A stretch of DNA of 64,000 nucleotides, taken from positions 4,530-68,529 of the forward strand of contig CAYZOI010000001.1 of assembly GCA_964480145.1 (NCBI GenBank), given 5' to 3'. Both the position numbers and the translations under genes were made by a program. Positions 17,025 through 58,826 of the stretch are shown in pieces (position 1 is the first letter of the stretch; every line of letters starts with the position of its first letter). The notes under the pieces were generated by a model. That model saw only the letters and a program-made list of their open reading frames with translations, searched no databases and was not told where the DNA came from. Source of the DNA: an uncultured Dehalococcoidaceae bacterium (GTDB taxonomy: Bacteria > Chloroflexota > Dehalococcoidia > Dehalococcoidales > RBG-16-60-22).

Positions 17025-17504
17025 TTAACCCCTCCTCAAGAACCAGGGACTGATATTGACGATTTTGCCCCGGTAATAGAACAAAATCATGATGCCAAGG
17101 ATAAGCATCACAATATCGATATAAAGCGCGCCGGCGATAGACAGCTTTAACTGTACCCATCTTTCCGCCTCACCAAAACAGCCGCAGGGCTTGTCGCCAA
17201 GCCCCTGAATGAGCAGTATGGTGTTATTGGCAATCAGGCCGACGGTAAGTGCCAGCGCAAAGGAAGCCACCAGTCGGGCGATACTGCCGGTGATGAGGAG
17301 CACGCCAATTAAAATCTCGACGCTGGGCAACCACCGGAAAATGAACTTGTCCAGCGCGATGGGCAGGAACTCCGGAAAAACGAAAATGACAAACGAATCC
17401 GTCTGGCTGAGAGTTTTCCCCAGACCGGCGGCCAGAAAAATAAGGCCCAGAATAATACCCGCGCCGATAGCTAACCAGTTAGCACGTGTCATGATATCAC
17501 ACAC
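17025..17504 (-). CDS. MauE/DoxX-like integral membrane protein
   Basis: 159 aa with 4 hydrophobic segments and a CGCFG motif typical of MauE-type proteins. Abuts the patatin start codon. Confidence 0.5.
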   Translation of the reverse strand: MCDIMTRANWLAIGAGIILGLIFLAAGLGKTLSQTDSFVIFVFPEFLPIALDKFIFRWLPSVEILIGVLLITGSIARLVASFALALTVGLIANNTILLIQGLGDKPCGCFGEAERWVQLKLSIAGALYIDIVMLILGIMILFYYRGKIVNISPWFLRRG

Positions 17505-17540
17505 CTCAATTGTTTGTGTTTCCGGTGGCGGGCCAGCCCC

Positions 17541-19151
17541 TCATCCCCACAGTTCTTCGATGTCTTTTTCCGCCTGTTTCCCGCCTTCGGCCTTTCCCGC
17601 AGTAAGAAATTCCTTATAAGACTGTGGTGAGCCGTACTCCCTCGTCTGGATGACCACCGGCATCGGCACGGCATGTCCGAAAATGAGCGCCTGCTGTTTT
17701 GACTCCAGCCGGGAGAGCACCGATTTCAGAGCACCTTTGCCGGAAACACCGGCGAGGACACTGTCAACATCCCGCTCGTTGTCGAGCAGGCAGGTGATTT
17801 TGGTGCCCATCTGCGACATCACCTCAGCGTCTATGCCGCTGGGACGCTGGTCAATGACCAGCAGTGTTACATTGTATTTTCTCATCTCGCGGGCGATAGT
17901 GCCGAAAATGGTCCGGGCGGCAACCTCCGGGTTCAGAAACCGGTGTGCCTCTTCAATGGTTATGACCAGCGGCTTGGGCTTGGTGGTCTCCTCACCCATC
18001 GCCTTCTCCATCCGGTCGCGGTACTGGGAGTGAATCCGCCGCGTCAACAGATTGGCCACCAGAATGTAGGCGGTGGTATCGGTGTAGCGGCCAAACTCCA
18101 GGACGACGTTTATGCCCCGGTCAAGGTATTCCAGAACGCGCGCGACCGCATTATCCGGGGCCTGGGGCTCGATGAAAGGGAGGCGGCTTATCGTGGCCAG
18201 TCCCCTCTTTAAATTCTGAAAGGTGCTTTCGTGGATAGCCAACTCATTTAATAACCGACTGGTTTCCTCGGAATCGGGCATGTCTGCGGCCTGCTGCAGC
18301 CAGTTCCTGCCGAATCGACGCCGCAACTGGTAAATGGCTTCCACGGCCGGCTCGGTGAGGTTCAGGGTCTGGCGCAGCAGCGCCATGTCCTCCGGCTCTA
18401 TCTCATCGTAGCCAATCCGGACAACAAAATCGGTGCTCACCTTTCTCCGTCGCGAGCTTTCCTCGTCAAGGGTGAACACTGCCACCTTCGAGGGAAATAG
18501 CTGCTTCAATCCCTTGACGGAACGCCCCCCCTCGCTCGTCCCCGCCCAGCCGTACTCGTTGTGCATGTCGAAAATCAAATTCACCGCGGCGCTCTTCTGC
18601 AGCATGCCGATGAGCAGGATGCGGGTGAGGAATGTCTTGCCCGTGCCGCTCTTGCCGAAGATGCCGTTGGAGCGTTTGACCAGTTCCGGCAGGTCGAGGC
18701 ATATCTTGGTCTCCATATCGAGCGGCGTTCCCACGTAAAACCTCTTTTCGTCCTCGCCGCCGAAGACGAGCTCAACATCCGCCTGCGAGGCCAGGTTGAC
18801 CACCGAGAAATGGCTGGGCACGGTTTTTACCGGCTTCGGCCCTTCTACCAGGTCCGCCACGTCGCCGCTGATGGTGAGCATGGGTAGTACGTGCAGGATA
18901 CCGTAGGTGCTCGTGCCGGAGAGCACTTCAGAAACAAAGGGATCTGTAATATCGGGCGGCGTCAGCGTAAACCGCGGGTCAATGACGCCCAGCTCGATAT
19001 CGGTTATCATGCCGAAAAAGCGCTGTCTCTGCCCCTCTATGGTGACGTAGCGACCTACCGCCATGTCCTCCACCGATACCGTCCCATCGAGCTTTACCTC
19101 AACGCCGCTCTCCAGCGAGCCGGAGACAACAACGCCCAATCTATCCGTCAT
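17541..19151 (-). CDS. herA: HerA-like (DUF87) hexameric ATPase/translocase
   Basis: 536 aa. N-terminal beta-barrel-like segment (GVVVSGS..VGRYVTIEG..FFGMITDI), Walker A GKSGTGKT, Walker B ITIEEAHRF, VIDQRPSGID. Confidence 0.8.
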   Translation of the reverse strand: MTDRLGVVVSGSLESGVEVKLDGTVSVEDMAVGRYVTIEGQRQRFFGMITDIELGVIDPRFTLTPPDITDPFVSEVLSGTSTYGILHVLPMLTISGDVADLVEGPKPVKTVPSHFSVVNLASQADVELVFGGEDEKRFYVGTPLDMETKICLDLPELVKRSNGIFGKSGTGKTFLTRILLIGMLQKSAAVNLIFDMHNEYGWAGTSEGGRSVKGLKQLFPSKVAVFTLDEESSRRRKVSTDFVVRIGYDEIEPEDMALLRQTLNLTEPAVEAIYQLRRRFGRNWLQQAADMPDSEETSRLLNELAIHESTFQNLKRGLATISRLPFIEPQAPDNAVARVLEYLDRGINVVLEFGRYTDTTAYILVANLLTRRIHSQYRDRMEKAMGEETTKPKPLVITIEEAHRFLNPEVAARTIFGTIAREMRKYNVTLLVIDQRPSGIDAEVMSQMGTKITCLLDNERDVDSVLAGVSGKGALKSVLSRLESKQQALIFGHAVPMPVVIQTREYGSPQSYKEFLTAGKAEGGKQAEKDIEELWG

Positions 19152-19753
19152 TTCAGCCTCCCCAGAATCGCTCTGAGCTGATTGAACTGCCCGCCGAGCA
19201 TAACGGCCAGCTCTTTGCCCGCCGCCACCAGAAAGCCGCGCGGGTCTTCCTGCGACTGGCTCATCAGGCGCAGGGCAGCGGGCACGATTTCGTCAACGGC
19301 TACGGGCAGATGAGCGCTCACCAGCATATTTAGAAACGCCAGCGACCGCCCAAACTCTTTTATCTCATCGGTAGAACACTGATAGACAAAGTCGTGGAGT
19401 CGCGCCGGACCGGGCGGCAGGTACTGGTTTATATTGTCCCCTATTTTATGTCCCACCACCAGCGCGCTGAACTCGCTGCGGAGCAGTTTTGAAAGCTGAG
19501 GGCTGGACTGGTAGATGGCCGCCTCGCTATCCTCATCTTTGCCGCGGGCGATGGGCCTTCTCCCCGGCTCCAGGCTGCCGGTGGTAGCGTGGTAGACGAT
19601 GCCGTAGATGTCCAGCTCACCGTCTTTCGTTTTCACCAGGCTGCCCAGAGGCGGCAGCTCATAAAGCTCGTAGCACTGCGCGGTAAAGCCCGCCGTGCTG
19701 GCTTCTATAATTTCACCGACTCTATCTGCTAAACTGGAGTTAATCAGTCTCAC
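19148..19753 (-). CDS. hypothetical 201-aa protein with a HAS-barrel-like N-terminus, coupled to herA
   Basis: ATGA stop/start overlap with herA at 19148-19151. N-terminus VGEIIEASTAGFTAQ..LGSLVKT..IYGIVYH fits a small beta-barrel pattern. The GTG start is embedded in AGGAGGTGA, so the exact start is uncertain. Confidence 0.6.
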   Translation of the reverse strand: MRLINSSLADRVGEIIEASTAGFTAQCYELYELPPLGSLVKTKDGELDIYGIVYHATTGSLEPGRRPIARGKDEDSEAAIYQSSPQLSKLLRSEFSALVVGHKIGDNINQYLPPGPARLHDFVYQCSTDEIKEFGRSLAFLNMLVSAHLPVAVDEIVPAALRLMSQSQEDPRGFLVAAGKELAVMLGGQFNQLRAILGRLK

Positions 19754-19770
19754 CTCCTGTGGTACTCTAT

Positions 19771-19855
19771 TCCCTCTTTGGAAAAGGGGGATAAAGGGGG
19801 ATTTGCAATCCCTCTCAATCTCCCTTCAGGAAAGGGAGAGGTCAAATCTCTCTTA
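19771..19855. repeat. G/C-tract hairpin repeat element (left flank of the low-GC cassette)
   Basis: Hairpins TCCCTCTTTggaAAAGGGGGA (19771-19791) and TCTCCCTTcaggaAAGGGAGA (19819-19839). Tandem AAAGGGGGAT x2 (19783-19802). The 3' part (19831-19855) resembles 21189-21215. Confidence 0.55.
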
Positions 19856-19867
19856 TTCTACTGTCTC

Positions 19868-19933
19868 TTACTTCCCTTTCTTGTCTTTCTTCTGCTTGGC
19901 TTTCTTTACGTTTTTTCTGCCTTTACTGCCCAT
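19868..19933 (-). CDS. 21-aa lysine-rich micro-ORF (MGSKGRKNVKKAKQKKDKKGK)
   Basis: Hand-translated. AGGAG lies 8 nt upstream of the ATG, and the ORF starts 23 nt after the DUF2130 stop. No homology is known to me. Confidence 0.25.
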   Translation of the reverse strand: MGSKGRKNVKKAKQKKDKKGK

Positions 19934-19956
19934 TTTATATCTCCTGACTTGACTTG

Positions 19957-21081
19957 TTAATTACTCTCAGAATCATTACCTGACGCAAGTAGCTGTAAAC
20001 CTTTGATCTGAGGTAGTAATGCTCGGCCAATTATGCCTCTTATGTCTGAATAGAATCCCGTTGCCCCTTTGATAGCCTTTTCTATTTCCTTCTTTCGTGT
20101 ATTCCAAATGCCCTCCATGGCACGTCTCTCTTGGTCAATGTCTTCCTGCATTGCGAGAAGTGCTTCCACAACAGGTTCTATTCTTTGTTTGAATTCTGGG
20201 CCTGCGAAGTAAGCATAAAGAGCTTCTATCTTTTGGTCTCTACCTTCCAAAGAAAGCCGATTATTAGTTATTTCGATTAAGCTAAACCTAAGAACATCAG
20301 AAAGGCAACACGCTACTGGTAGGCGTGCAACCCATACATTTTCAACCATACCAAAAGTCGTTACATTTTCTGGAGTCACTATGGAAGCGATGGCGGCAAT
20401 ATCAGCTTTTTTATCTCTTTGGTCGTTCTTTAGTTTTGGTATCCAACTAGTGTTCCAACTCGCAGTATTCTTGGATTCCCAGAGGATAGTTCCACATAAT
20501 TGCATATTATTATTTTTGTCTTTTACTTTCTGTATTATATCAGCACCTTTTGCTCCCCTTTTTACAATTTCTATATCATCTTCTGGGAAACTGGACTCAA
20601 GCATCCGCTCGAGCTCATACTGTAAGGCGTCGCCTTTAATTTGAGGTGAAATTTGTTCGGATTTCTCTTGGAGTTCTTTAATTTTTGTCAGAAGTTCCTT
20701 ATTCTCATAATCTTTCTCCACGATTTTTTTATTATACTCATCACTAAGTTTTTTCTTTTCTTCATCTACTTTACGGTCGACTTCCAAATCAAGTTCCTTT
20801 TCTCTGGCGTCTACTTTCTTAAGTCTATTTCTTAAACTACGCTCAACGTCTTGTGACTCTTTGAGTTTCTTTTCAGATTGATTTAGTTCGCTCTGAAGTT
20901 CTTCAATAGCCCGATTTGCTTCCTTCGTAGCCTTTTCCTTCTCTGCATCCAATTTCGGTTTCAACCCAGCTTCCCATTGCTTTTTCCACTCTTGTTGAAA
21001 TGGATAAAGAACTGTATCTGCTAGTTGAAACTCTGCTCCACATTTAGGGCAAGTGATTAGATTACTCGTTGTCTTAACCAT
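19957..21081 (-). CDS. DUF2130-type protein: N-terminal Zn ribbon, long K/E coiled coil, conserved C-terminal domain
   Basis: ORF track 19957..21105. ATG21081 (MVKTTSNLITCPKCGAEF) is preferred because GGAGG lies inside the longer version. C-terminus ..GAKGADIIQKV..GTILWESKNT..W..WIPKLKNDQ.. matches my memory of DUF2130. The gene is conspicuously AT-rich. Confidence 0.7.
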   Translation of the reverse strand: MVKTTSNLITCPKCGAEFQLADTVLYPFQQEWKKQWEAGLKPKLDAEKEKATKEANRAIEELQSELNQSEKKLKESQDVERSLRNRLKKVDAREKELDLEVDRKVDEEKKKLSDEYNKKIVEKDYENKELLTKIKELQEKSEQISPQIKGDALQYELERMLESSFPEDDIEIVKRGAKGADIIQKVKDKNNNMQLCGTILWESKNTASWNTSWIPKLKNDQRDKKADIAAIASIVTPENVTTFGMVENVWVARLPVACCLSDVLRFSLIEITNNRLSLEGRDQKIEALYAYFAGPEFKQRIEPVVEALLAMQEDIDQERRAMEGIWNTRKKEIEKAIKGATGFYSDIRGIIGRALLPQIKGLQLLASGNDSESN

Positions 21082-21158
21082 TGCTCTTTTCCCTCCTTTT
21101 CCCACTTATGCTATTTTTTAAGGCAAGCTTAAAGTGGTTTAGCCCCTTCAAAACTTAT

Positions 21159-21215
21159 CCTCCCCCTCTCCTCCTAGGATAGGGGGGCAAAGAGGGTGAG
21201 GCCAAAATTCTCTTA
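21159..21215. repeat. G/C-tract hairpin repeat element (right flank of the low-GC cassette)
   Basis: Imperfect hairpin CCTCCCCCTCT (21159-21169) / AGAGGGTGAGG (21191-21201). 21189-21215 (AAAGAGGGTGAGGCCAAAATTCTCTTA) aligns by hand with 19831-19855. Confidence 0.5.
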
Positions 21216-21353
21216 CCCTGCCGCCTGTCCCAGGTAGAAAGGCCAGACCACTATCCCCAGGATAATCTTCCACCATACCAGCTCCGCATAGCCGATGGTG
21301 AACAGCCAGCCGATGAACCATATAATGCCGAATCCGGGTCCACTGTGCTTCAT
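21213..21353 (-). CDS. 46-aa membrane micro-protein (MKHSGPGFGIIWFIGWLFTIGYAELVWWKIILGIVVWPFYLGQAAG)
   Basis: Hand-translated. AGGAGG lies 7 nt upstream of the ATG. Two hydrophobic, Trp-rich segments. Different frame from the listed 75-aa ORF 21148..21375. Confidence 0.55.
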   Translation of the reverse strand: MKHSGPGFGIIWFIGWLFTIGYAELVWWKIILGIVVWPFYLGQAAG

Positions 21354-21396
21354 TTTTTCCCTCCTTCTTTAACATCGCGGTGAGTTTAATAATATA

Positions 21397-22596
21397 TTAC
21401 ACCCACCTCGTCCGCTTGCTAAAACTCTTGGCGGAGGTGAGGGTGGGGATTTTTTCCTCAACGCAGAGTGCTTCCACCAGCTGCCAGAACTCGGCGCGGT
21501 CGGCACCGGTGACCACCGCCTGCTCGTGGGCCTCACTCAAAGCCACCGGGTAGCCCTGCCCCCTCTGGCACTGGTCAAGGAGCAAAGCGTGCGCCGTGTC
21601 CAGCAAGTCTGGGTTTTCCGCCACCCAGCGCGGCAGCTCCACCCGCGCCACCTCTTCCTCAAGCCGTATGTAAAAGAAATAAACCCTGTGTTCGCCGTAA
21701 CGTTCCTTCGTTATCTTGGACGGGCTTACGAACAGCGCCGACCTCTCGCCCGGCTCTAATACATCCATGAAGAGTTCACGGTCGGTTACGCCGGCCACGC
21801 CTTCGCAGTCCCTATCTTTATTGGGCGGGCAGAAGCGGTCGCAGTCGGCCACCTCGTGCGGGCAGATGGCCACCCGCAGGACGTTGACCACATCTGTACT
21901 CCTGGGAAAACTGATGTAGCTGGCCAGCGCCATCTTCTTATCCCGGTTTTGCTTTCTCATCTCTTCCAAGCAAAGTAAAAAGCCATTGCCCAGCAGCGCC
22001 TCGGTGACGAAGTCGGGAAACGCCTCCAGTCCCCAAAGAATCAAAGTGCCATCGAGCAGCGCCAGAGTGCTGCTGCCCGGGGGCTGTTCCGCAGCCAGCG
22101 CAGACAGGTGGCGGCATTCCTCAACGGCGCGCTTGATGCCGAGCAATGTTCCTTCCACCACCTGCTCACGACCGCTCGCCGCCGCCGGCTTTATCACCAG
22201 GTCTTCATCTTCAGCGTAGAGGTGCGGGGCACTATCCAGCAGGGCATCTGGTTCGTCGCCGTACCTGAGAGCAACGGTACCGATGTTTATCAGGTAGCAC
22301 CGCGTGGAACGATGCCGGTCAACGTCAATATGGGAGCCATCGGCAGCCATCACGCTGAACGCGGCGGGGAGGGGCGGCGCCGGGTATCGTTCCGCCAGTC
22401 CGTCGCACAGCTCCGCCACCAGCCACGTGGTCCGGCTGGCCGCGACTTTCCTCTTCAGTTTCTCCAGGTCAATGGCTTCATCGCCAAAGATTTGCCGCGC
22501 GTACTGAAGTCGCTGCTGCCTTTCGGCACGGCCTTCCTTCAGGCGCACCACCATGTTGCTGGCCTGCGAGGCTATCTTGGTTAAATCCAGTGACAC
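21397..22596 (-). CDS. nurA: NurA-domain 5'-3' nuclease-like protein
   Basis: 399 aa. ..VMAADGSHIDVDRH.. (NurA D-G-S motif) and C-terminal ..GQGYPVALSEAHEQAVV.. (NurA GYP..L..AH motif). GTG start. Confidence 0.7.
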   Translation of the reverse strand: MSLDLTKIASQASNMVVRLKEGRAERQQRLQYARQIFGDEAIDLEKLKRKVAASRTTWLVAELCDGLAERYPAPPLPAAFSVMAADGSHIDVDRHRSTRCYLINIGTVALRYGDEPDALLDSAPHLYAEDEDLVIKPAAASGREQVVEGTLLGIKRAVEECRHLSALAAEQPPGSSTLALLDGTLILWGLEAFPDFVTEALLGNGFLLCLEEMRKQNRDKKMALASYISFPRSTDVVNVLRVAICPHEVADCDRFCPPNKDRDCEGVAGVTDRELFMDVLEPGERSALFVSPSKITKERYGEHRVYFFYIRLEEEVARVELPRWVAENPDLLDTAHALLLDQCQRGQGYPVALSEAHEQAVVTGADRAEFWQLVEALCVEEKIPTLTSAKSFSKRTRWV

Positions 22597-22696
22597 CCTT
22601 TTTCCCTCTACGGCAAAGTATAATTCATCACTGGAATGAACTCAAGCCAGTAAGACACCGAAAGCAAGGGTATGATATGATGAGAGGGAGGTTCAC

Positions 22697-23308
22697 ATGC
22701 TTCCAATCCTGCTGAGCGTTGCCGTTATCTCCTTCTCCGGGGTAATGATGCCCGGCCCCATGCTCGCCGTCACCCTGGCGAAAAGCTACAGGTCACCGTG
22801 GGCGGGAGTCTGGATTTCCCTCGGGCACGCCGTTATTGAAGTCCCTCTAATACTACTCATCTACTTCGGTTTCGCCCAGTTCTTTCAGGTTACTGTTGTG
22901 CGGCTGGCGCTGAGCGTGGCGGGCAGCGGCATGATAATCTGGATGGGCGTGAGCATGTTCCGCGCCCGCAGCGAGGTTGCCAGAAAAAGGAAGGACCTGC
23001 CTTACAACGCCTTCGCCGCCGGCATTCTGACCAGCGTCTTCAACCCTTTTTTTCTGGTCTGGTGGGCGACCATCGGCAGCATGCTCATTATGCGCATCCT
23101 CGAATTCGGCACGATGGGTCTTATTGTCTTCACCATGGTGCACTGGCTGTGCGACCTCACCTGGCTGACACTGGTATCCAACGTTATTTACCGGACGCAC
23201 GCCTTCTGGAACCAGCGCGTGCAGGAGTGGCTTTTCATTGCCTGCAGCCTGCTACTGGTTGGCTTCGGCATCTGGTTTCTGGTGTCGGGCATCAGGCTTG
23301 TGATTTAG
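22697..23308 (+). CDS. LysE/RhtB-family amino-acid exporter
   Basis: 203 aa with 5-6 TM segments. N-terminal ..PGPM.. and ..NP..W.. motifs. Confidence 0.8.
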   Translation: MLPILLSVAVISFSGVMMPGPMLAVTLAKSYRSPWAGVWISLGHAVIEVPLILLIYFGFAQFFQVTVVRLALSVAGSGMIIWMGVSMFRARSEVARKRKDLPYNAFAAGILTSVFNPFFLVWWATIGSMLIMRILEFGTMGLIVFTMVHWLCDLTWLTLVSNVIYRTHAFWNQRVQEWLFIACSLLLVGFGIWFLVSGIRLVI

Positions 23309-46352: not shown

Positions 46353-47417
46353 TTATTTCTTCTTATATTGTTTCATCGCAGACTTAATGAATTGTCCGAA
46401 TTTCCTATCCTTTTTTCGTTTTTCAATATAAGACATTTGATAGTGTTCGGATTCTTTTTTTAACTTGAGGAAGCTTTGATAGTGAGTTTCACTTATGTCG
46501 CCACTTTGAACGGCTCTCAGCACTGAACAGCCGGCTTCATGCGTATGAGTACAATCATTGAAACAGCATTCTTTGGACAAGTTTTGAATATCTGAAAAGC
46601 TCTCCTCAATACCCGACTCGACACCGATATTACCTAATTCTCTCATGCCTGGAGTATCGATTATCATTGCTCCTTGGTCAAGGACTACTAATTGTCGACG
46701 AGCTGTTGTATGTCTTCCCTTCCCGTCCTTCTCTCTGACCAAGTTTATTTTAAATGCGCCGCGCCCAATCAGACGATTTAGGAGAGTAGTTTTACCCACT
46801 CCAGATGAACCAAGCAGACAATAAGTTCTACCAGGCTCCAGCACCTGCTGGATTTCGGATAACCCTAAACCAGTTTCAATACTGTAGGCAATGGTTTTAC
46901 ATTTGATACCTGTATTTCTTATCTCTGAGATATTACTCTCCAATTCTTTTTGGCTGACCAGGTCACTCTTACTCAATAGAATCACAGGCTCGATATAACT
47001 ATCGTTTACCATCACCAGGTATCGTTCTAGTCTGCGCAGATTGAAATTGAAATCACATGACTGAACAATAAATGCCACATCGATGTTCGAAGCAATTATC
47101 TGATAATCGACTTTCTTACCGGCGATCTTACGTCTTAGTATTGTTTTCCTCGGTAATAGGTCGTAAATAATAGCGAATGTATTATCGTTGTAGTATTGAA
47201 CAAATGCCCAATCTCCAACCGCAGGATATTTGATTATCGACTCTGCGGAAAACCTGAATTCGCCCGCAAGTTCGGATAGGACTTCGCTATGTTCATTCCT
47301 AACAAGATAGCTACCTTTGTTGACAGCTGTAATGCGGGCTATGCTGTGGTCAGGTTTGCTTGATTCCTTCTGCCTCTGCTTAAACCAGTCATTGAATCCG
47401 AGAGTCTGCAATTCCAT
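46353..47417 (-). CDS. rsgA: ribosome small-subunit-dependent GTPase A (circularly permuted GTPase)
   Basis: 354 aa. Order G4 (LSKSD), G1 (GSSGVGKTTL), G3 (DTPG), then C-terminal Zn cluster CxFxDCxHxxExxC. The gene is strikingly AT-rich. Confidence 0.85.
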   Translation of the reverse strand: MELQTLGFNDWFKQRQKESSKPDHSIARITAVNKGSYLVRNEHSEVLSELAGEFRFSAESIIKYPAVGDWAFVQYYNDNTFAIIYDLLPRKTILRRKIAGKKVDYQIIASNIDVAFIVQSCDFNFNLRRLERYLVMVNDSYIEPVILLSKSDLVSQKELESNISEIRNTGIKCKTIAYSIETGLGLSEIQQVLEPGRTYCLLGSSGVGKTTLLNRLIGRGAFKINLVREKDGKGRHTTARRQLVVLDQGAMIIDTPGMRELGNIGVESGIEESFSDIQNLSKECCFNDCTHTHEAGCSVLRAVQSGDISETHYQSFLKLKKESEHYQMSYIEKRKKDRKFGQFIKSAMKQYKKK

Positions 47418-58019: not shown

Positions 58020-58826
58020 ATGGTTCAATCCATTATTAAACCAAGCGTGCATAAAGTTGGCTTCATTTCGCCGCCAGCCTGGTTTGACATATCACCAACT
58101 GAGTTCCTGCGTATTGCTCCAAAAAATACAATTGTTATGCAAACAGTCATGCGGCTACCGGATTTTGACTATAAAGTAGACAGAGTGGAACAATTTATAA
58201 ATTCTGTACCAGAGTTGGGTGCGTGTTTTAATTCTCTAGCAGAAGCCGGAGCTGACGTTGTAACCCAGTTTGGATACCCTTTTTCCTTAGCTCATGGGTG
58301 GGAAAAGGCTCAAAAGGTTTATAAAAGTATTCAGAAAAACAGCGAAACTAGCTTTGTAATGATGGGCGTGGAAATAGTATACGCCATGAAACATCTCAAC
58401 TGTAAATCAATCGCTATCGCATCTACATACTATTCTGGAAAGATGTCGAAAATACTTTATGAATATCTGATAGAGGCCGGTTTCAACATTTTGCATTCCG
58501 AAAACTGGCAATCACAGGGTATAGCAGAAGAGACAGATTCTAATTTATTTATCGGAGAGGGAGAATTAGACCCTATAAACTGGAAAACCCCCGTGTATGC
58601 TATTGAAAAAGCGGTCAGGAATGTCTCGAAAAATGCTCCTGATGCAGATTGTATTTTAGTTTCCGGTGGTGGCATGAGGTTGCTGGACGTCGTTGAGAGA
58701 CTGGAGAAAGAAACAGGCAAACCCATTATTGGTGGAGATTTGGCTATATACTGGGGAATTCTCAGGCGACTCGGTATCAAAGAAAGCGTTCGCGGACACG
58801 GGAAATTGCTAGCTAATCTGGTTTAG
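58020..58826 (+). CDS. arylmalonate decarboxylase / maleate isomerase (Asp/Glu-racemase superfamily) homologue
   Basis: 268 aa. VGFISPPAW.., ..SIAIASTYY.., ..DCILVSGGGMRLLDV..GKPIIGG.. parallel AMDase/MaiA blocks as I remember them. The gene is AT-rich. Confidence 0.55.
   Translation: MVQSIIKPSVHKVGFISPPAWFDISPTEFLRIAPKNTIVMQTVMRLPDFDYKVDRVEQFINSVPELGACFNSLAEAGADVVTQFGYPFSLAHGWEKAQKVYKSIQKNSETSFVMMGVEIVYAMKHLNCKSIAIASTYYSGKMSKILYEYLIEAGFNILHSENWQSQGIAEETDSNLFIGEGELDPINWKTPVYAIEKAVRNVSKNAPDADCILVSGGGMRLLDVVERLEKETGKPIIGGDLAIYWGILRRLGIKESVRGHGKLLANLV

Follow-up and report, generated by a model that had tools for sequence, protein, structure and literature searches.

A low-GC DUF2130 gene in a variable slot of a Dehalococcoidales nurA-herA cluster

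Between the nuclease gene nurA and the ATPase gene herA of an uncultured Dehalococcoidaceae bacterium, the G+C content of the DNA falls abruptly across a single gene of the DUF2130/COG4487 family. Where does this low-GC stretch begin and end, how did it come to lie in the cluster, and what might its product do there? We addressed these questions in a 64,000-nucleotide stretch of contig CAYZOI010000001.1 (assembly GCA_964480145.1), hereafter the window, and in related loci, which carry labels of the form L002. All genes of the cluster lie on the minus strand, in the order nurA, p46, the DUF2130 gene, a Lys-rich micro open reading frame (micro-ORF), p201 and herA (Table 1). A first description made from the window alone (hereafter the sequence-only reading) had proposed that a cassette spanning 19771-21215 was inserted at a terminator-like repeat, part of which was duplicated. 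Our analysis instead favours, with a probability of roughly 0.6, a one-gene accessory module (a leader plus the 374-aa DUF2130 gene) that reached a hypervariable slot recently by lateral exchange.

Composition and borders of the insert

The DUF2130 gene is compositionally foreign. The G+C content of its cassette is 39%, as compared to 58-61% in the flanking genes; in a sliding window the value drops from ~0.58-0.61 to 0.36-0.41 from roughly 19700 to 21100, and the three lowest-GC 1-kb windows of the entire 64 kb (mean 0.545, standard deviation 0.040) fall here. The contrast extends to the G+C content of third codon positions (GC3), which is 0.32 in the DUF2130 gene versus 0.74 in herA, 0.69 in p201, 0.72 in p46 and 0.74 in nurA, and to synonymous codon choice, which is reversed: the CTT:CTG ratio is 13:1 in the DUF2130 gene and 10:69 in the flanks. 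Both composition and codon use thus deviate from those of the host. The sharp drop described in the sequence-only reading is therefore real, and its hand counts (20/60 G+C at 20641-20700 and 41/60 at 19201-19260) proved exact on recount.

A scan for p201, in which one genome per species was retained, yielded 53 related loci that were mapped by tblastn, and the DUF2130 gene was present at none of them. In particular, it is absent from nine of the nine close relatives in which the slot is covered (L002, L003, L004, L006, L008, L009, L012, L053 and L151, the last being found through the exact p46 protein, which is identical to that of the window). Gene-free slots, which the sequence-only reading had suggested looking for, were found in L002 and L004, whose flanking proteins share 92-97% amino-acid identity with those of the window, and in L151; other genes fill the slot in L003, L006, L008, L009 and L053. 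In L002 and L004, no more than a few dozen bases separate p46 and its hairpin from the micro-ORF, after which come the three-hairpin element and p201, so that an empty site with conserved flanks exists in close relatives. That all relatives would have the gene in this position, with a composition like that of the host, had been named as the outcome speaking against acquisition; such a situation was encountered for some distant relatives only and not for the close ones.

The empty sites also define the borders of the insert. Comparison of the window with L002 by blastn revealed homology over 22700..21176 (92.9%) and 19935..17502 (94.2%), and the window-specific segment between them contains the DUF2130 gene, its leader and 23 nucleotides of 3' spacer, with a single ORF. 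Since the hairpin element R2, which follows p46, is complete in both genomes, the left edge of the insert falls somewhere in 21150-21175, and two bases separate its right edge from the start codon of the micro-ORF. The cassette as originally delimited was consequently too wide: the insert extends from 19936 to ~21150-21175, and both the micro-ORF and the three-hairpin element R1 are host sequence. The junction at the empty site, GTGTAGA(G/T)GAGATTTAATTTTAC(C/T)GGGAGG, is kept in two relatives (L002:3344-3393 and L151:770-826).

A variable slot and the origin of the gene

The conserved plan of the locus is nurA, p46 (not always present), the slot, the Lys-rich micro-ORF, p201 and herA, with nurA-herA synteny being kept in more than 40 loci. 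The Dehalococcoidales nurA-herA cluster (L002-L053) is interrupted at one or two places by hypervariable intervals, 0.2-2.8 kb in length; a second such interval, between p201 and herA, is found in L016, L030, L031, L034, L039, L041 and L046, and a methyltransferase is also among the cargo. Across relatives, the slot between nurA and p201 holds genes for an HSDR_N nuclease, a DUF4328 protein, a four-helix protein of the 23S_rRNA_IVP type, LOG, HicA, a flavodoxin and small membrane proteins. This cargo is mostly low in GC and differs in nearly every relative. The slot thereby shares with integration hotspots (genomic islets and defence-island hotspots) conserved flanks, an empty site and varied low-GC cargo, some of it of defence type (HSDR_N, HicA, DUF2130); it differs from them in lying inside an apparent single operon without integrase or tRNA. 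The neighbours listed in the gene tables, which cover ~8 kb towards nurA and ~4 kb towards herA, include no recombinase gene; they belong to non-recombinase families or are small ORFs without family match. The insert itself encodes neither transposase nor integrase, its only ORF being the DUF2130 gene.

The nearest homologues of the DUF2130 protein are 56-63% identical to it. Among those with sufficient sequence context, all but one occupy the equivalent slot, ahead of the equivalent micro-ORF, in five further Dehalococcoidales lineages, and the module can therefore not be regarded as arbitrary cargo. The gene orders are NurA-flavodoxin-Zn-ribbon protein-DUF2130-micro-ORF-p81-HicA-p194-HerA in L060, NurA-p44-DUF2130-micro-ORF in L062/L063, p56-DUF2130-micro-ORF-...-p195-transglutaminase-like-HerA in L064/L065, NurA-DUF2130-micro-ORF-p196-HerA in L066 and NurA-DUF2130 in L067. 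The exception is L068, where the DUF2130-micro-ORF pair is located between coaBC and valS, in a low-GC island with hairpins on both sides. In every lineage (L055, L060, L062, L064, L066, L067 and L068) the GC3 of the DUF2130 gene is 0.32-0.42, whereas that of the flanks is 0.45-0.74.

Of the earlier claim that a horizontally acquired module sits at a hairpin, the foreign composition, the absence of the gene from close relatives and the position directly after R2 all stand; the duplication of the repeat does not. Four observations argue for lateral arrival. Firstly, the DUF2130 protein of L066 is 73-75% identical to those of L060 and L062 (which are 74% identical to each other), while its NurA is only 57% identical. 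Secondly, GC3 differs by 0.40 between the gene and others of the same operon. Thirdly, the GC3 of the gene is low in every lineage, whatever that of the flanks. Finally, there is the gene-free state of all nine close relatives. The DUF2130 gene would have arrived by lateral exchange from another Dehalococcoidales-type genome, through recombination within sequence common to donor and recipient. One arm of the exchange would be the R2 hairpin, p46 or the 3' end of nurA, all of which are common to donor-type and recipient-type loci, and the other the highly conserved Lys-rich micro-ORF; if recombination took place in such common stretches, the constant position of the gene directly ahead of the micro-ORF would be accounted for.

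Several points weigh against this proposal. No donor was identified, the best homologue being only 63% identical. The window protein is 61-62% identical to its counterparts in L060 and L062, which is near the divergence of NurA and p201 (65-68%), and identity alone is therefore compatible with vertical descent. The presumed recombination arms are deduced from sequence conservation, no donor-derived tract being visible in the flanks, and a constraint peculiar to the DUF2130 gene, rather than repeated transfer, could underlie its uniformly low GC3. In addition, the empty-site junction faintly resembles the hairpin of the U1 leader (Table 1) and could be a deletion scar. As to the nuclease fold assigned to the product (see below), the near-top Foldseek matches against the PDB, namely the nuclease domains of Cap4, MspJI and SPARDA, are weak (E 0.013-0.13).

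Alternatively, the DUF2130 gene may have been an ancestral resident, present in the nurA-herA locus of the common ancestor, inherited vertically here and repeatedly deleted or replaced elsewhere; its low GC would then be a property of the gene, resulting, for example, from selection for AT-rich codons or from low expression of a toxic nuclease. Such a history is consistent with the recurrence of slot, leader element and downstream micro-ORF in six lineages, with a divergence similar to that of the flanking proteins, with the low GC3 in all lineages and with a possible U1 remnant at the empty-site junction. However, it would require many independent losses to account for nine gene-free close relatives, and a GC3 gap of this size within one operon would be hard to keep over the time span involved. 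Neither the incongruent positions of L066 in the DUF2130 and NurA comparisons nor the presence of the DUF2130-micro-ORF pair at a different locus in L068 fits vertical inheritance, and we consider it unlikely.

Hairpin elements of the locus

The sequence-only reading had assigned a central role to two similar repeats, here termed R1 and R2. The R1 unit is ~78 nucleotides long (window 19771-19848) and is 92-96% identical in L002, L003, L005, L008 and L053, all of which lack the DUF2130 cassette. In L024 (1780-1853) it is 93% identical, even though p201 of this locus is only 66% identical, and in L062/L063 it occurs in inverted orientation, with 90% identity, between nurA and p44 (L062:5064-5125). 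With 90-96% identity across lineages, as opposed to 66-84% for the neighbouring proteins, R1 is a cis element under strong constraint or else a small mobile palindrome; RNAalifold detected no compensatory changes in seven R1 copies, the sequences being too similar. R2 follows p46 in L002, L006, L009 and L151, all without DUF2130, and is also found in the DUF2130-bearing lineages L063, L065 and L066. The U1 leader, in turn, lies upstream of the DUF2130 gene in the window, L060, L063 and L066, though the proteins are only ~61% identical, and is absent from the empty sites.

The minus-strand cores of R1 and R2, TAAGAGAGATTTGACCTCTCCCT and TAAGAGAATTTTGGCCTCACCCT, match at 19 of 23 positions without gaps, a score that none of 5000 shuffles of the second string reached. 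Within the window, R1 matches no other sequence as well as R2, albeit by a small margin (score 15 versus 14); the runner-up, near 54.9 kb, was considered as a further copy and is unconvincing, looking like a chance match. The degenerate 18-mer of R1/R2 occurs at these two places only in the 64 kb, and motif searches of the window for a genome-wide repeat family returned the two local copies alone. Members of the R1/R2 family are GC-tract palindromes, in which a GACCTC(A/T)CCC box is followed by CCCTTTATCCCCC-loop-GGGGG, and in 517 kb of related loci such palindromes are found almost only between nurA and p201. Both repeat strings quoted in the sequence-only reading are thus where it had placed them, their identity of about 80% exceeds that of shuffled sequences, and the motif TAAGAGA indeed overlaps the p46 stop codon and recurs twice after the Lys-rich ORF. 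By contrast, the designation of the repeats as terminator-like could not be upheld: a consensus scan located no terminator at R1 or R2 (promoter-like matches were not above those in shuffles), and single-sequence folding of the R1 and R2+U1 regions was unexceptional (z = -1.8 and -1.1). A search of 19000-22000 against Rfam (E <= 1) produced no match.

Elements of the R1/R2 type are reminiscent of repetitive extragenic palindromic (REP) sequences, bacterial interspersed mosaic elements (BIME) or elements like miniature inverted-repeat transposable elements (MITE): they, too, are short GC-rich imperfect palindromes right after stop codons, occur in both orientations and are conserved better than neighbouring genes. 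Unlike these, they are confined to the locus rather than dispersed, and no transposase of the RAYT (REP-associated tyrosine transposase) type was seen. Could R1, R2 and U1 nevertheless be the sites of an integron-like or REP/MITE-like site-specific system that shuffles small genes? A palindrome of this kind follows almost every small slot gene; R1 retains 90-93% identity where the proteins of the lineages compared share ~66%, and it is inverted elsewhere in L062; the pair at the other locus in L068 has hairpins on both sides; and the slot cargo resembles that of integrons (small, low-GC, toxin-antitoxin and membrane proteins). However, no recombinase gene accompanies the locus among the neighbours scanned, and attC core sites (GTTRRRY, RYYYAAC) are lacking on either strand of the R1 and R2+U1 regions, which also have no counterpart in Rfam. 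The confinement of the motifs to this locus in the 64 kb, and almost so in the 517 kb, is likewise unlike REP/MITE behaviour. Gene shuffling directed by the hairpins is hence improbable.

Still less credible is the original model, according to which a mobile module was inserted into a terminator-like repeat and part of the repeat was duplicated to form its borders. The similarity of R1 and R2, their identical orientation and their position on either side of the region would fit such an event. Yet R1 and R2, equally alike, are already present together in L002 and L008, which are devoid of DUF2130 (and R2 also in L006, L009 and L151); since both repeats occur in gene-free genomes, they are older than the insertion, their similarity is inherited and nothing was duplicated. 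Furthermore, the conserved Lys-rich micro-ORF lies between R1 and the insert, so that the left repeat is not a border of the cassette at all, the segment carries neither transposase nor integrase, and the consensus scan revealed nothing terminator-like in the hairpins. An assembly chimera or contaminant, in which a low-GC piece was wrongly joined, might be suspected in a metagenome-assembled contig with an abrupt composition change, but can be dismissed with near certainty, as the identical DUF2130 protein and arrangement occur on 11 contigs from at least five metagenome samples, with independent samples and assemblers, the contigs compared differ by 1-19 substitutions over 4.2-9.1 kb with none in the cassette, and homologous gene orders exist in other lineages.

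The DUF2130 protein and its surroundings

The originally listed ORF, which begins with a GTG at 21105, is probably overextended: in all homologues, as well as in gene-caller output, the start corresponds to the ATG at 21081, and an exact look-up found the 374-aa ATG form on record and not the 382-aa product of the GTG start. The protein matches PF09903 with 168.5 bits (cut-off 26.7) over model positions 2-241 of 255, as do, with scores of their own, all members of the subfamily (14/14), which bears out its original assignment as DUF2130-type. In common with the DUF2130/COG4487 family at large, it possesses a single N-terminal CxxC, a long helix and a D...ExK core. What distinguishes the Dehalococcoidales subfamily (56-63% identity inside, at most 43% to others) is its tie to nurA-herA and the micro-ORF, a context observed in no other sampled member.

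An AlphaFold2 model of the protein (mean pLDDT 73) places C11 and C14 on a short beta-hairpin, followed by the helix of residues 20-144, the core and C-terminal helices. The zinc ribbon predicted from the CPKCG motif was not recovered: Pfam zinc-ribbon models match the first knuckle only (positions 3-17 of 36) and remain below their cut-offs, and the single N-terminal CxxC is also what is seen in 12 distant family members. As one CxxC is conserved in the whole family, it is not part of a four-ligand ribbon. The long K/E-rich helix is present as predicted, but measures ~125 residues instead of ~170. Matches of the protein to the PADLOC models LmuB and JetC were rejected as driven by the coiled coil. 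The protein may dimerise through the long helix, and the two single CxxC knuckles of such a dimer could possibly share one Zn, which is a reasonable guess and no more.

Within the core, the residues of interest are E156, D181 (20539-20541) and E202-S-K204 (20470-20478), of which E156, D181, E202 and K204 do not vary across the subfamily alignment. The modelled order of secondary structure elements is alpha-beta-beta-beta-alpha-beta, with E156 in helix 1 and with D181 in strand 2 (179-188) and E202/K204 in strand 3 (194-204) adjacent to each other; an acidic residue in strand 2 and ExK in strand 3 correspond to the PD-(D/E)xK motif. A search of PDB sequences with the subfamily profile returned coiled-coil noise only. 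DUF2130 has been listed in the PD-(D/E)XK superfamily as a family of unknown function (Steczkiewicz et al. 2012, PMC3424549). Judging from the alignment and the model, the product is predicted to be a Mg-dependent PD-(D/E)xK DNA nuclease, with a presumed role as an accessory, defence-type or DNA-end-processing enzyme.

RmuC is a coiled-coil and PD-(D/E)xK protein that limits recombination, and the sequence-only reading had likened the cassette product to RmuC-like coiled-coil nucleases. The likeness holds for the architecture, both having an N-terminal part that is helical or forms a coiled coil, ahead of a PD-(D/E)xK domain (PMC3424549 and background), but not for membership: DUF2130 has its CxxC knuckle where RmuC has a membrane anchor, and PF02646 (RmuC) gave no match at E <= 1 in the 14 members of the subfamily.

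More distant relatives point to a defence context. Neither NurA nor p201 is a neighbour in any of 76 distant DUF2130 loci (32-43% identity). In these loci, the gene that follows directly, ~90 bp downstream and in the same orientation, recurrently belongs to one of three types. The first encodes a fusion of an OLD-type AAA_15-TOPRIM protein with a DUF4011 helicase (8 loci; L087:6001-13228 and L098:6001-10349 are among the OLD/PHP examples), the second a PHP-domain SMC-like ATPase that partially matches the PADLOC Ppl model (5 loci) and the third an AAA_13 / PDC-S06 candidate defence protein (4 loci; PDC-S06 in L146:485-4105). In two cases (L140:1231-5717 and L141:6001-10072) DUF2130 lies directly upstream of a full Sir2-HerA pair (PADLOC, 336-755 bits), and in L135 a HerA-like ATPase precedes it. 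The family thus lives in defence-island surroundings, repeatedly beside P-loop motors, which fits an accessory or defence nuclease. A phage origin is unsupported: PHROGs contained no match, viral contigs a single distant one at 39% identity, and phage records seven, likewise distant, at 30% over 64% of the protein.

The locus of the window encodes a NurA-domain nuclease together with a HerA ATPase. In archaea, the corresponding genes form the operon herA-mre11-rad50-nurA, and here nurA and herA likewise occupy one strand in one cluster. A bacterial NurA-HerA end-resection complex has been reported from Deinococcus radiodurans (PMC9960219); titles and abstracts of the NurA-HerA literature searched make no mention of p46, the Lys-rich micro-ORF or p201. 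A coiled-coil nuclease with CxxC encoded between nurA and herA loosely recalls the zinc hook, coiled coil and nuclease of Rad50-Mre11. The differences are nonetheless substantial, as DUF2130 lacks ABC ATPase heads, carries its CxxC at the N-terminus and not at the coiled-coil apex, has a nuclease of the PD-(D/E)xK and not of the phosphoesterase type, and is encoded by a dispensable gene that is absent from most relatives. The Sir2-HerA anti-phage system offers a second comparison, given that distant DUF2130 genes precede true Sir2-HerA pairs and that the HerA of the window partly matches the same models. Its match to the PADLOC defence HerA, however, amounts to 105 bits over residues 389-506, in the C-terminal part only, whereas real members score 525-755 bits, and the protein scores 78 bits with the NCBIfam model HerA_antiphage, whose cut-off is 800. 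There is no Sir2 or DUF4297 partner; the partner of this HerA is NurA.

It could be that NurA, p46, DUF2130, the Lys-rich micro-ORF product, a HAS-barrel-like p201 and HerA make up an extended Dehalococcoidales NurA-HerA machine, of which DUF2130 would be an optional fourth or fifth subunit, or that DUF2130 is an exchangeable effector of a HerA-based defence module; we regard both as speculative and distinctly doubtful. Were this so, a coiled-coil nuclease dimerised through CxxC would tether or cut DNA ends for the HerA motor, as a non-homologous stand-in for Mre11-Rad50, and the recurring adjacency of distant DUF2130 genes to HerA ATPases (L135, L140, L141) would reflect a general partnership. 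Alternatively, DUF2130 may merely be lodged in a permissive hotspot.

DUF2130/COG4487 is widespread in bacteria, with more than 800 matches among the scored candidates and 513 confirmed among the first 600 metagenome pattern matches, and the family gains two contexts here: a lineage-specific, position-fixed link to NurA-HerA, and adjacency to Sir2-HerA and other defence ATPases in other phyla. At the same time, the locus is an instance of a small recombination hotspot within an operon of apparently essential type in an uncultured group, and three unannotated conserved features come with it (the Lys-rich micro-ORF of 21 aa, the hairpin element R1 and HerA-coupled p201). Taken as a horizontal transfer, the event is ordinary; moderate interest attaches to the locus-specific association and to these unannotated features.

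Among the resident genes, p201 has 3,324 homologues, none of them annotated, and belongs to no Pfam family. It adjoins herA in nearly all loci of the tblastn map, and 17 of 20 members display a sub-threshold similarity to the HAS-barrel domain, making p201 a possible stand-alone HAS-barrel partner of HerA and likely the third component of the Dehalococcoidales NurA-HerA system. Its AlphaFold model is poor (pLDDT 51) and unfit for structure search, and no relatives were found among PDB sequences. The micro-protein p46, for which family models gave no match, is probably a two-helix membrane protein and is kept in L002, L004, L006, L008, L009, L062 and L064. The Lys-rich micro-ORF is mostly missed by gene callers. 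More than 45 Dehalococcoidales loci, whether or not they carry DUF2130, share its N-terminal motif, MG[ST]KGRKNVKKPKQ, which is lacking from all of the distant DUF2130 loci. Across lineages, the micro-ORF hardly varies at the nucleotide level. With regard to a possible role as a classic attenuation leader, the N-terminus of the peptide is conserved at the amino-acid level, and the hairpins downstream vary between lineages.

Table 1. Features of the nurA-herA cluster and of the DUF2130 insert (window coordinates).
Feature	Position	Strand	Remarks
nurA	21397..22596	-	PF09376, 97.1 bits
p46, 46-aa hydrophobic micro-protein	21213..21353	-	host composition, GC3 0.72
R2, hairpin element from the p46 stop codon, right "border repeat"	21150..21215	-	present with or without DUF2130
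U1 leader, TTTTGAAGGGGC..hairpin..AAGCTTGCCTTAA	21101..21152	-	travels with the DUF2130 gene
Window-specific segment	19936..21175	-	1,240 bp versus 50 bp in L002
DUF2130/COG4487 gene, 374 aa	19957..21081	-	ATG at 21081, GGAGG 10 nucleotides upstream
C11-P-K-C14 codons, single CxxC knuckle	21040..21051	-	C11, C14 and G15 invariant in subfamily alignment
Long K/E-rich helix, residues 20-144, presumed coiled coil	20650..21024	-	AlphaFold2 model m75e8dfbab2fa, pLDDT ~74-87
PD-(D/E)xK nuclease core (predicted), residues 152-273	20263..20628	-	alignment and AlphaFold2 model
Lys-rich micro-ORF, 21 aa, MGSKGRKNVKKAKQKKDKKGK	19868..19933	-	translation; resident of the locus, outside the cassette
R1, three-hairpin element after the micro-ORF, left "border repeat"	19771..19855	-	conserved host sequence
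p201, 201-aa conserved protein	19148..19753	-	stop overlaps herA start
herA, HAS-barrel and DUF87 ATPase	17541..19151	-	PF01935, 107.9 bits; PF09378, 36.3 bits

Beyond the cluster, housekeeping-type genes are found on both sides, with LysE, a histone-deacetylase-family gene, a cation efflux protein and SecDF on one and MauE, patatin and MFS on the other, and the closest public genomes are metagenome-assembled genomes of Dehalococcoidales. Two more low-GC genes (~40-43% G+C) are present in the window, at 46353-47417 (minus strand) and 58020-58826 (plus strand). From the look of their sequences we take one to be an RsgA-like GTPase and the other, of 268 aa, to be of the Asp/Glu-racemase or maleate-isomerase type; both may be further acquired genes.

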